UHGV virus genome: UHGV-0349585
Direction: 5' to 3' (one strand)
Length of the DNA: 14,578 nucleotides
Origin: a virus
Under the pieces are notes generated by a model. That model worked only from the letters and a program-made list of their open reading frames with translations. It ran no database searches and was not told the DNA's origin. The translations under genes and the position numbers were made by a program. Below, piece after piece: positions 4,249 to 8,348 of the stretch (the first letter of the stretch is position 1; the number at the start of each line of letters is the position of its first letter).

Positions 4249-4965
<717 letters not shown>

Positions 4966-5264
4966 AGAGGATAGATGGAGTTTAATGGCCATGAGTATCA
5001 AGCGGTCAAAAAGAAGCTCATCTATTCATTGAAAGCATAAGGCCATCTGAGTATATCCGTAATGATCTGGATATTGTCTATAACATCAATGACCGGACGA
5101 TAGATATCGGTGAGCAGCGTCCTGTATGGCAGGGTGAGGCAGGTGAAAAAACGTCCTGCCATCAACAAGAATCAAGTGCATCCGCTCTCTGGACAGATGG
5201 AAAATTTATTGGATGCAAAAAGATATGAAATAACACCTGTATAGCACGGAGCTTTCTCTGACCG

Positions 5265-5660
5265 ATGCACTTGAAGTTGTTAGGGCTGACCCAGCCTGCT
5301 GTTTCTTTAGAGCTTGCCGAGCGATACATCAACGCAACTGAGCCGAAGCCTAGCGACAGCAGCATTACTGCATATAAAAGCCGCATGGAAAGTGCAATCA
5401 AAAAGTTTGTAGCTTTCCAGTCTGGTGAAGAAATCCCATACACTCCGATTGACAAAGAATCCAGTGAGGAAAAAGATTTGACTGGCGAACCAACAAAAGT
5501 CGAAGGCAAGGCTAATGCACTTCATACCTATGATCTTCCAGTAGTTCTTCGACCTGAATCAGGGGTTACAGTAACGATTAAAGGCATTCCTAACGATATC
5601 ACAAACGAAGAAGCCGAACGCATCTCTTCAATTCTGAAGGTTTACGTTCGGCCTCAATAA
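5265..5660 (+). CDS. Hypothetical protein (131 aa) in the slot occupied by rexA/rexB in lambda
   Basis: Longest ORF between cI and the timm-like terminator, co-oriented with cI; acidic and Lys-rich composition; weak RBS; two antisense ORFs overlap it, so coding status is uncertain. Confidence 0.35.
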   Translation: MHLKLLGLTQPAVSLELAERYINATEPKPSDSSITAYKSRMESAIKKFVAFQSGEEIPYTPIDKESSEEKDLTGEPTKVEGKANALHTYDLPVVLRPESGVTVTIKGIPNDITNEEAERISSILKVYVRPQ

Positions 5661-5961: not shown

Positions 5962-5990
5962 AACCCGGCCTCCATGCCGGGTTTTCTTTT
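5962..5990 (+). terminator. Intrinsic terminator ending the cI operon (timm-like)
   Basis: CCCGGC/GCCGGG stem (5964-5981) with 6-nt loop followed by TTTTCTTTT. Confidence 0.6.
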
Positions 5991-6140: not shown

Positions 6141-6203
6141 AACCATCTGCGGTGATAAATTATCTCTGGCGGTGTTGACATAAATACCACTGGCGGTGAT
6201 ACT
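6141..6203 (+). promoter_or_regulatory. OL3-OL2-OL1 operators and pL promoter
   Basis: 17-bp operators at 6141-6157, 6161-6177, 6185-6201; -35 TTGACA (6175-6180); -10 GATACT (6198-6203). Confidence 0.9.
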
Positions 6204-6242: not shown

Positions 6243-6273
6243 CGCTCTTAAAAATTAAGCCCTGAAGAAGGGC
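6243..6273 (+). promoter_or_regulatory. nutL (boxA and boxB)
   Basis: boxA CGCTCTTA (6243-6250); boxB hairpin GCCCTGAAGAAGGGC (6259-6273). Confidence 0.85.
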
Positions 6274-6430
6274 AGCATTCAAAGCAGAAGGCTTTGGTGT
6301 GTGTGATACGAAACGAAGCATTGGCCGGAAGTGCGAATCCGGATTAGCTGCCAATGTGCCATTGCGGGGTGTTTTCGTTCAGGACTACGACTCCCACACA
6401 CAACCAAAGCTAACTGACAGGAGAATCCAG

Positions 6431-6757
6431 ATGGATGCACAAACACGCCGCCGCGAACGTCGCGCAGAGAAACAGGCTCAATGGAAAGCAGCAAATCCCC
6501 TGTTGGTTGGGGTAAGCGCAAAACCAGTTAACCGCCCTATTCTCTCGCTGAATCGCAAACCGAAATCACGAGTAGAAAGCGCACTGAATCCGATAGACCT
6601 TACAGTGCTGGCTGAATACCACGAACAGATTGAAAGCAACCTGCAACGTATTGAGCGCAAGAATCAGCGCACATGGTACAGCAAGCCACGCAGTGAAATG
6701 GGTGTGACTTGTGTTGGTCGCCAGAAAATGAAATTAGGCAGCAAACCACTTATTTGA
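6431..6757 (+). CDS. N: N antitermination protein (108 aa), lambda-like with a divergent C-terminus
   Basis: MDAQTRRRERRAEKQAQWKAANPLLVGVSAKPVNRPILSLNRKPK... with Arg-rich N-terminal motif; AGGAG RBS before ATG at 6431; ORF-track frame 6299-6757 is an upstream extension into the leader. Confidence 0.9.
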   Translation: MDAQTRRRERRAEKQAQWKAANPLLVGVSAKPVNRPILSLNRKPKSRVESALNPIDLTVLAEYHEQIESNLQRIERKNQRTWYSKPRSEMGVTCVGRQKMKLGSKPLI

Positions 6758-6765
6758 GGTGAGAT

Positions 6766-7236
6766 ATGACAATATCATGGAGCGTACCTTTTCCTGAATC
6801 AGAAACTGAACATGATGGAATGCCTGTTTTCTGGAGATTCCAGGCGACAGTTGAAGAATATGGAATCAAAATATTCGCACTTCAATATATAGCTTTTCAT
6901 CAGACAGAGCATTATGCATGGTTGGTTCCTGCGCATTGGATTGTTAATTTTAAACCAGCACCAAATCAGTGGTTACAGGAATGGAAACAAAAGAGAAATA
7001 GATATGCAATTAAGAAAGTAGCAAAAAATGCAGAAAGATCTTTTGCATTCCCAACGAAGAAACTTGCCATTGAAAGTTTATTGCGCCGGAAGAAATACCA
7101 TTTAATGAGAATCAAACAAGATTTGGCTGTTGTATCAACTCTTGTTGATGGGATGAAGAATATTGATACATCAACACCAGATATTGAATATAACTTTGGA
7201 CACAACCAAGAAACAGAAAATTGGGTATTTTATTAG
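6766..7236 (+). CDS. Hypothetical protein (156 aa), AT-rich accessory gene directly downstream of N
   Basis: GAGGTGAG RBS then ATG 8 nt after N stop; visibly AT-rich versus neighbours (by eye); no motif I recognise; Trp/His-rich N-terminal half, Lys/Arg-rich middle. Confidence 0.7.
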   Translation: MTISWSVPFPESETEHDGMPVFWRFQATVEEYGIKIFALQYIAFHQTEHYAWLVPAHWIVNFKPAPNQWLQEWKQKRNRYAIKKVAKNAERSFAFPTKKLAIESLLRRKKYHLMRIKQDLAVVSTLVDGMKNIDTSTPDIEYNFGHNQETENWVFY

Positions 7237-7250
7237 TACGAATAAGCACT

Positions 7251-7278
7251 GTGTATTCATTCCAACGAGTGAATACAC
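7251..7278. repeat. Perfect 9-bp inverted repeat with 10-nt loop
   Basis: GTGTATTCA (7251-7259) and TGAATACAC (7270-7278); no T-run follows. Confidence 0.5.
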
Positions 7279-7340
7279 GGAGCAATGTCGCTCGTAACTA
7301 AACAGGAGCCGACTTGTTCTGATTATTGGAAATCTTCTTT

Positions 7341-7367
7341 GCCCTCCGGTGTGAGGGCAATTTTTTT
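7341..7367 (+). terminator. Intrinsic terminator between the AT-rich ORF and the coiled-coil gene
   Basis: GCCCTC/GAGGGC stem with 6-nt loop followed by AATTTTTTT. Confidence 0.6.
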
Positions 7368-7379
7368 GACGGAGGATAT

Positions 7380-8348
7380 ATGAGTGAAGTAACAGATTTA
7401 GTTGTTATTGAAAAAGCAAATGCAATGACTGTATTTCAGTCTGCCGACCAGATTGAAGAAATCCTTCAAAAGGTTGAACGTGAAGTTATGTCCTTTGTGC
7501 CTGATATCACAACGGCAAAGGGCAGAAAGGAGATCGCTTCTCTGGCGTATAAAGTTGCGCAGACGAAAACATATCTCGATGGTCTTGGAAAAGACCTTGT
7601 TGCTGAACTGAAGGAAATTCCAAAGCTAATTGATGCCAACCGCAAGACAGTGCGCGATCGCCTTGATGAGCTGAAAGCCAAGGCACGCCAGCCTCTTACT
7701 GATTATGAAGAGGAACAGGCGCGAATTAAAGCTGAAGAAGAAGCTAAGGCAGCAGCTGAAGCTCTCGCAAAGCAAATTGAGTCTGACCATGAAATAGCGA
7801 TTTTGATGGATCGCGAATTTGACCGCCAAAGAGAAGAGGCAAGACTCAAAGCGGAGCAGGAAAAGCGAGAGCATGAAGAACGCTTAAAAAGAGAAGCTGA
7901 AGAGAAAGCCAGAGCTGAAGCCGAAGCAAAGGCAAAAGCCGAAATTGAAGCAGCAGCAAGGCGAGAAGCAGAAGCTAAGGCCGCAGCGGAACGTGCAGAG
8001 CGTGAACGCATTGAAGCCGAGCAACGAGCACAGCGCGAAGCAAAAGAGGCAGCAGAACGAGCTGAAAGAGAAAAGCAGGCAGCAATTGAAGCAGAACGCA
8101 GAAAAGCACAGGAGGAGGCTGAACGAATCCGGCGCGAGGCTGAAGCAAAAGAGCAAGCCAGAATAGCAGAAGAAAAAAGAATCAAGGACGAAGAAGAGCG
8201 TAGAGCAAAGGATAAAGCTCACCGAAAAGAAGTAAATAACAAAATACTTGCTGACCTTATCAAGGTTGGCGCATCAGAAGATGTTGCTAAAAATATCATA
8301 ACAGCCATCGTAAAAGGCGAAGTATTCGCAACAAAAATAACCTACTAA
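7380..8348 (+). CDS. Charged coiled-coil protein (about 322 aa) with Glu/Ala/Lys/Arg-rich low-complexity central region
   Basis: GGAGGA RBS then ATG at 7380 (MSEVTDL...); central 200 residues are EAKA/ERAE-type repeats; globular-looking ends; ORF-track frame starts 18 codons upstream without an RBS. Confidence 0.75.
   Translation: MSEVTDLVVIEKANAMTVFQSADQIEEILQKVEREVMSFVPDITTAKGRKEIASLAYKVAQTKTYLDGLGKDLVAELKEIPKLIDANRKTVRDRLDELKAKARQPLTDYEEEQARIKAEEEAKAAAEALAKQIESDHEIAILMDREFDRQREEARLKAEQEKREHEERLKREAEEKARAEAEAKAKAEIEAAARREAEAKAAAERAERERIEAEQRAQREAKEAAERAEREKQAAIEAERRKAQEEAERIRREAEAKEQARIAEEKRIKDEEERRAKDKAHRKEVNNKILADLIKVGASEDVAKNIITAIVKGEVFATKITY

Follow-up and report, generated by a model that had tools for sequence, protein, structure and literature searches.

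The open reading frame (ORF) that follows the antiterminator gene N in a 14,578-nucleotide stretch of viral DNA (UHGV virus genome UHGV-0349585; the whole stretch is called the window below) is very probably an exchangeable accessory gene of the early-left operon, one that works on its own. The window comprises the immunity and early-left region of a lambdoid prophage, and the ORF at 6766-7236 exactly fills the slot between N and a conserved 121-bp element (Table 1). As the initial annotation had stated, it encodes 156 amino acids, begins 8 nt past the N stop codon and has a good ribosome-binding site: the TGA of N (6755-6757) is separated from the ATG by the gap GGTGAGAT, and the Shine-Dalgarno sequence, GAGGTGA, overlaps the stop codon. 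Judged by its conservation it is a real gene, because its homologues keep their length, because dN/dS is 0.07-0.24 wherever dS is not saturated, and because antisense and off-frame ORFs of the AT-rich stretch are not conserved among the homologues. A candidate antisense gene in the cassette, a 79-aa minus-strand ORF (6966-7205) with a weak promoter-like site at 7255-7227, was rejected on this last ground.

Table 1. Features of the immunity and early-left region, in coordinates of the window
Feature	Position	Strand	Remarks
Lambda-type cI	4252-4965		
pL promoter	6175-6203	+	TTGACA-17-GATACT by pattern scan; identical hexamers at the annotated lambda pL/oL region
nutL boxB hairpin	6259-6273	+	GCCCTGAAGAAGGGC; same hairpin picked up at the annotated lambda nutL
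Antiterminator gene N	6431-6757	+	Pfam N36, E = 1.5e-26
31-bp linker (putative portable junction sequence)	6738-6768	+	last N codons, Shine-Dalgarno sequence and start codon; GCAGCAAACCACTTATTTGAGGTGAGATATG
156-aa accessory ORF	6766-7236	+	ATG start; AT-rich; PHROG 1636
Conserved backbone element, 121 bp	7246-7366	+	closes the variable slot
Hairpin 1	7251-7278		perfect 12-bp stem, 4-nt loop
Hairpin 2	about 7279-7319		
Intrinsic terminator	7339-7360		8-bp GC-rich stem, then T7; T-run to 7367

The junctions of the slot, at about 6768 and about 7246, were located by comparison with phages whose flanks are near-identical to those of the window. HK544 matches the window up to 6768 and, on the other side, from 7246 on, with orf28 and ral inside the slot; the equivalent segment of lambda, from N to the 121-bp element, holds sieB, orf28 and ral; and that of Sf6 holds g36, orf28, ral and g34 between the same junctions. 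The slot is occupied by an unrelated ORF of 130 or 84 aa in HK633 and mEp234, by a 63-aa Cys-rich ORF in Louie and by a 150-aa membrane protein in HF4s; phage Huey is collinear with the window throughout and carries the ORF gene. Altogether, at least five mutually unrelated cargos are found in the slot among related phages. An empty-site test, in which the query joined the two flanks of the slot, revealed no empty slot among the matches listed that span both flanks; several insert sizes were found instead. The cargo of HK633 and mEp234 ("similar to VT2-Sap20") was considered as truncated copies of the ORF, but its translation (MEFHESAICDF...) is unrelated, and therefore it represents a different cargo rather than decayed copies. 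These comparisons bear out the initial annotation, which had placed the ORF in the hotspot of ral and sieB, had regarded it as a horizontally acquired accessory gene and had proposed its presence or absence in related prophages as a check: between the two junctions, near-identical flanks carry the ORF in some phages and other cargos in their relatives. Among these other cargos, membrane proteins of 140-150 aa are found in Sf6 (g34) and HF4s. The products of Sf6 g34 (locus L004, 2701-3123), HF4s_37 (L018, 196-645) and HK633_044 (L016, 973-1149) are all membrane proteins that have in common a near-identical C-terminal tail (…WLKIWLAPKLYLIEYAASLVK) and differ in their N-terminal parts, a hint that small membrane proteins of this hotspot form a modular family, perhaps active in exclusion.

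At the left junction, the 31-bp linker is 100% identical in Sf6, where it is located between g36 and orf28/ral (L004, 2344-2374). It precedes orf28/ral in HK544, and in Bas106 it precedes the same ORF as in the window, there after a different gene; one of its occurrences is in locus L025 (about 1975-2003). As far as sequence comparison can tell, this linker has the look of a portable junction at which cassettes are shuffled by recombination, and short shared linkers are likely to be the substrates of cassette exchange. The ORF is an accessory cassette that consists of one gene of the lambdoid pL operon, and its exchange between phages probably took place by recombination at such short conserved junctions. 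Its gene has been found in combination with three types of N and as many recombination modules, namely that of 933W (Red), that of HK97 (Erf) and that of the window (a Rad52-like gene with SSB), and in phi296 it directly follows ral, which identifies the ORF gene and ral as independent cassettes and not as alternatives.

The 121-bp element on the right (7246-7366) is 98% identical to positions 33925-34045 of lambda, between ral and ea10, and occurs at 97-99% identity in Sf6, 933W and other lambdoid loci (HK633, mEp234, Louie, HF4s). It is present also in HK544, and lambda, Sf6 and HK544 all possess it without the ORF gene. The annotation of Sf6 describes it as the boundary sequence bsq4 together with a homologue of tL2A. 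Its RNA is predicted to fold with -46.4 kcal/mol (z = -4.5) into three hairpins, the last of which is the terminator. The element is conserved although the genes on both sides differ between phages, and its conservation is far above the need of a plain terminator. We also considered it as a known small RNA, but no Rfam family matches it, and it is treated here as a terminator and boundary element. The initial annotation had recognized the hairpin at 7251-7278 and the terminator behind it, and their places are correct; its view of them as boundaries borne by the cassette has to be abandoned, because with 98% identity in lambda they belong to the backbone and not to the cargo. Hairpin and terminator mark the limits of the slot rather than of the cassette.

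The ORF had also been described as more AT-rich than the flanking genes, with which our windowed calculation agrees: its GC content is 35.5% (GC3 27.4%), whereas the window as a whole has 46.3%, N 49.5% and the gene after the ORF 45.7%. In the 14.6 kb, no other segment of 471 nt has a lower GC content (z = -2.9); segments as GC-poor make up only 0.4%, and every one of them overlaps the ORF. Homologues in other genera likewise lie 5-10 GC points under their surroundings. The ORF displays two marks of a cassette, namely conserved flanks with unrelated alternative cargo at the same junctions and a composition atypical for the backbone.

The neighbouring genes present a mosaic of their own. N is 99% identical to lambda over 6394-6687, its last ~54 nt are of the 933W/HK97 type, and the block of match to 933W covers 6704-7366; the gene is therefore chimeric, lambda-type to about 6690, with a crossover inside the coding sequence. 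The C-terminus of the chimeric N (…PRSEMGVTCVGRQKMKLGSKPLI) is unlike that of lambda N. Downstream of cI (4966-5660), rexA and rexB are absent, and their place is taken by a remnant of a gene similar to 933W L0084 (83% DNA identity) with at least two frameshifts and a stop codon. The remnant is followed by a 131-aa ORF (5265-5660), whose match to PHROG 2602 is confined to the C-terminal two-thirds of the latter, and by a terminator at 5962-5983. This arrangement suggests the decay of prophage-expressed cargo. On the other side of the slot, 7380-8348 encodes a 322-aa protein of the Sf6 gene 33 family (PHROG 1376; no Pfam family), with a long, Glu/Ala/Lys/Arg-rich, coiled-coil-like middle, whose homologues have been annotated inconsistently as "TolA", "hypothetical" or "phi80 Agt-like Gam antitoxin".

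As a sequence, the gene was known before: it corresponds to HK97 gp45 and 933W L0079, which have been catalogued since the first genome papers, and with its place in the hotspot for accessory genes that follows N, the ORF is an ordinary case of something already known. Its product is 97-99% identical to HK97 gp45, 933W L0079, vb_24B_11c of phi24B and the counterpart in H-19B, which lacks an annotation. Its DNA is 98-99% identical to that of about 80 phage records, and the gene as such is contained in about 85. Among its carriers are most of the Stx1/Stx2 phages sequenced, as well as HK97, H-19B, 933W and phi24B; of the 5426 complete E. coli genomes, 598 (11%) contain it, with up to four copies per genome. 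Full-length homologues with 55-72% identity were identified in Pectobacterium, Brenneria, Cronobacter, Rosenbergiella, Symbiopectobacterium and a Salmonella phage; the length is kept down to 55% identity, and with the dN/dS values given above the gene is under purifying selection. Residues 1-156 match PHROG 1636 over profile positions 1-156 of 156 (E = 5.9e-110). Every source annotates the homologues as "hypothetical protein" or "prophage protein"; a clear homologue among the housekeeping proteins of phages, for which the initial annotation had allowed, did not emerge, and the literature searched on L0079 of 933W, VT2-Sap20, vb_24B_11c and HK97 gp45 yielded nothing on this protein.

Relatives of the gene have been identified also outside lambdoid prophages. 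A 64%-identical homologue is encoded at 27034-27510 of the Salmonella phage NX263, the full annotation of which lists no integrase or repressor. It is the first gene of a small leftward cluster, located between coat and head-tail genes, whose other members encode a DNA-binding protein, a MarR-like protein and a sliding-clamp-like protein. Another copy is present in a metagenomic phage contig as a single gene inserted among structural genes. Relatives by fold were found in phages of Erwinia, Rhizobium, Achromobacter, Delftia, Tenacibaculum and Cellulophaga, and a tblastn search with a distant superfamily member found one phage only. As the NX263 copy and the non-lambdoid fold relatives indicate, the gene is not tied to lysogeny.

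The encoded protein has a mass of 18.6 kDa, a pI of 9.0, 20 K+R against 17 D+E and a GRAVY of -0.51, and with a maximum Kyte-Doolittle 19-residue mean of 0.59 it has no transmembrane segment; it is thus predicted to be soluble and basic. Residues 74-117 contain a cluster of fourteen positions that are always basic, and for the segment 76-120 the pI is 11.2. No motif could be placed in the ORF by the initial annotation, and none was found by us: Pfam, NCBIfam and the sequences of the PDB gave no match, and PADLOC-DB gave only a 13-bit, 45-residue match to Cas1_II (E = 0.008), which we take as noise. An exhaustive profile search of 1.84 billion representative proteins (E < 1e-3) returned 87 relatives, most of them of 130-165 aa, which make up a wider superfamily. 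A match to P0057 (940 aa, seven matched stretches) was discarded as spurious, because this is a low-complexity repeat protein (DUF7507). Only G33, T47, K87 and A101 are near-invariant across the superfamily of 79 sequences, in which the motif K..K....RFAF.TK..A...L..RK..QL.HLK is recognizable. All 79 members match PHROG 1636; the proteins of the superfamily all map to PHROGs without assigned function, and none to Pfam.

Fold prediction, which had been proposed as a check, gave a poor AlphaFold model with a shallow alignment (pLDDT 66) and a confident one with the alignment of 79 sequences (pLDDT 94.9, pTM 0.81). The modelled fold comprises a three-stranded β-meander (19-55), two short helices, a short strand (83-86) and a 33-residue helix (98-130), followed by an ordered C-terminal tail. 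No fold match was found in the PDB, and the top structural matches are weak ones to Tudor/KOW-like small β domains (PipX, the C-terminal domain of UvrD, CarD, Spt5), so that the protein has a confidently predicted fold unlike solved structures. The superfamily exhibits no conserved set of catalytic-looking residues, which suggests a binding protein rather than an enzyme. One could imagine, on these features, a developmental regulator of the phage, whose basic strand-helix segment binds phage or host DNA or RNA and modulates early transcription, termination, RNA stability or the lysis-lysogeny decision, instead of acting against a host defence. The basic character of the protein and of its segment 76-120 would fit such a role, as would the presence of RNA polymerase binders among the weak structural matches and the probable co-transcription of the gene, possibly with translational coupling, with the antiterminator N. 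Nevertheless, we regard a regulator as unlikely.

The expression of the gene has to be considered together with that of N. In a consensus scan, pL is the only promoter-like site upstream of the ORF on the plus strand within the early-left operon, and a pattern scan revealed no promoter-like site on this strand between 6203 and 6766. The first terminator-like site past pL in the consensus scan is that at 7339-7360, with none between N and the ORF. From pL as the sole upstream site and this first terminator we infer that the ORF is read on the N transcript, silent under cI and made at the very start of lytic development. RNA driven by pL would carry both N and the ORF, the 8-nt spacing would allow coupled translation of the two, and the protein would be made within minutes of the onset of infection or induction and would be absent from the repressed prophage. 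Every homologue examined in a temperate lambdoid context is encoded on the strand of the early-left operon, either immediately ahead of xis-int or in the interval that extends from the repressor or N to cIII or the recombination genes; the same strand is used by a 23%-identical relative in the contig of an unrelated temperate phage, with a cI-like repressor on one side and RecT/YqaJ/SSB on the other. In prophages of Cronobacter, Pectobacterium and Brenneria, the homologue either lies in the interval from N to cIII or is the gene that directly precedes xis-int, with an intrinsic terminator about 15-30 nt upstream of its start codon, which leaves no room for a promoter of its own.

This pattern of expression bears on the idea that the ORF is a superinfection-exclusion or prophage defence gene, which like lambda sieB or rexAB protects the lysogen. 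The ORF does stand in place of the lambda segment that contains sieB, low-GC accessory genes of prophages are often defence genes, and the gene is widespread in prophages of E. coli. However, no promoter-like site separates the ORF from pL, whose operon is repressed by cI. The exclusion proteins SieB and RexB are membrane proteins, which the soluble product of the ORF is not predicted to be, the PADLOC match is not above noise, and the protein has a close homologue in a phage whose annotation contains no lysogeny genes, as well as fold relatives in many non-lambdoid phages. An exclusion function therefore appears quite improbable.

The reading that we favour, and to which we give about an even chance, is that of an early accessory protein of the lytic cycle, active in counter-defence or host takeover by binding a host protein or nucleic acid. 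It is favoured because the gene is probably on the earliest transcript and is located in a hotspot common with ral, because it moves among phages both temperate and devoid of annotated lysogeny genes, because it is under purifying selection, and because the hallmarks of exclusion genes expressed from the prophage (own promoter, membrane segments) are not seen in it. According to this proposal, the conserved Lys/Arg-rich strand-helix segment (residues 74-117) would bind a host macromolecule, be it a defence factor, a housekeeping factor or a nucleic acid, and the role would be of the functional class of Ral with a target different from that of Ral. We infer the expression timing, the binding mode and the pro-phage role alike.

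Many small proteins of the early-left operon, such as Kil, are toxic, and the gene is absent from many successful relatives of the phage. The product could accordingly be a host-toxic or growth-arresting early protein (a Kil-like takeover), or the gene could be essentially neutral, hitch-hiking cargo without benefit in most hosts. Neutral cargo is difficult to reconcile with strong purifying selection across genera (dN/dS as given above) and with retention in more than a tenth of the E. coli genomes and in the major Stx phages, and we assign little probability to this pair of alternatives. Precedents for the counter-defence or takeover reading come from published screens: in one screen of accessory genes, the abortive system gop-beta-cII was triggered by orf184, which belongs to an accessory region that contains ral (bioRxiv 10.1101/2023.04.06.535777), and genes of such regions can have counter-defence or abortive-trigger activities. 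The ORF was considered as orf184 itself and rejected: the AlphaFold file deposited for orf184 in the screen of Silas et al. begins with MEALVVERSEDGYWT, a different protein. This peptide is absent from all the loci compared, and the peptides and accessions of the ORF are absent from the supplements of both papers.

A broader version of the counter-defence reading, which we hold to be doubtful rather than probable, makes HK97 gp45/933W L0079 the founding member of a phage-wide family with a new structure, whose immediate-early proteins, built of a β-meander and a long basic helix, would serve counter-defence and neutralize, or be sensed by, a conserved component of bacterial immunity. The family would extend over phages of Enterobacterales, Vibrio, Rhizobium, Achromobacter, Delftia and Bacteroidota, and if it is true, the version of the Stx phages would help to set which E. 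coli strains get infected and converted. Located next to N, the gene is probably contained in the first transcript made on infection or induction, and if it serves counter-defence or takeover, its product would be one of the earliest-acting proteins of the phage and could affect the range of hosts open to Shiga-toxin-converting phages. The interest of the ORF lies in its being a very common, probably immediate-early protein of the major Stx phages and HK97 with an unmatched predicted fold, and the confident fold, together with easy genetics, makes it a cheap and well-defined experimental target.

Compared with known systems, the ORF is closest in sequence to HK97 gp45, 933W L0079 and phi24B vb_24B_11c, which have the same length and the same place, after N and before the hairpin-terminator element, and from which its product differs by only 2-4 residues. 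In contrast to 933W and HK97, the ORF is found here beside a lambda-type N and the lambda immunity region, and the gene that follows it also differs, being similar to Sf6 gene 33 here, ssb/ea10 in 933W and cIII in HK97. Morons in the sense of Hendrix and Juhala are units of promoter, gene and terminator expressed from the prophage, such as HK97 gp15. The ORF resembles them in its low GC content, in its presence or absence between related phages and in the terminator downstream. However, no sigma-70 promoter of its own was detected immediately upstream and it would be read with the early operon, and the terminator does not travel with the gene but belongs to the backbone, since phages devoid of the gene (lambda, Sf6, HK544) have it as well. 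With lambda SieB and RexAB the ORF has in common the neighbourhood, sieB being located in the homologous lambda segment; it differs from them in encoding a soluble, basic protein without transmembrane segments of the SieB/RexB type, in having no promoter-like site of its own immediately upstream, and in its orientation, as the ORF is on the strand transcribed from pL and lambda sieB is annotated on the opposite one. Anti-restriction proteins that mimic DNA (Ocr/ArdA type) have an acidic surface, which is not seen in the basic product of the ORF. Ral of lambda, of 66 aa against 156, has no sequence similarity to the protein and belongs to a different PHROG, and neither a Ral PHROG nor a Ral Pfam match was found for the ORF. 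On the other hand, Ral and the accessory region from N to tL2 offer a parallel in the slot, the strand, the junction sequences and, probably, the early expression driven by pL, and the ORF gene and ral are alike in being small, non-essential and variable between otherwise identical backbones.
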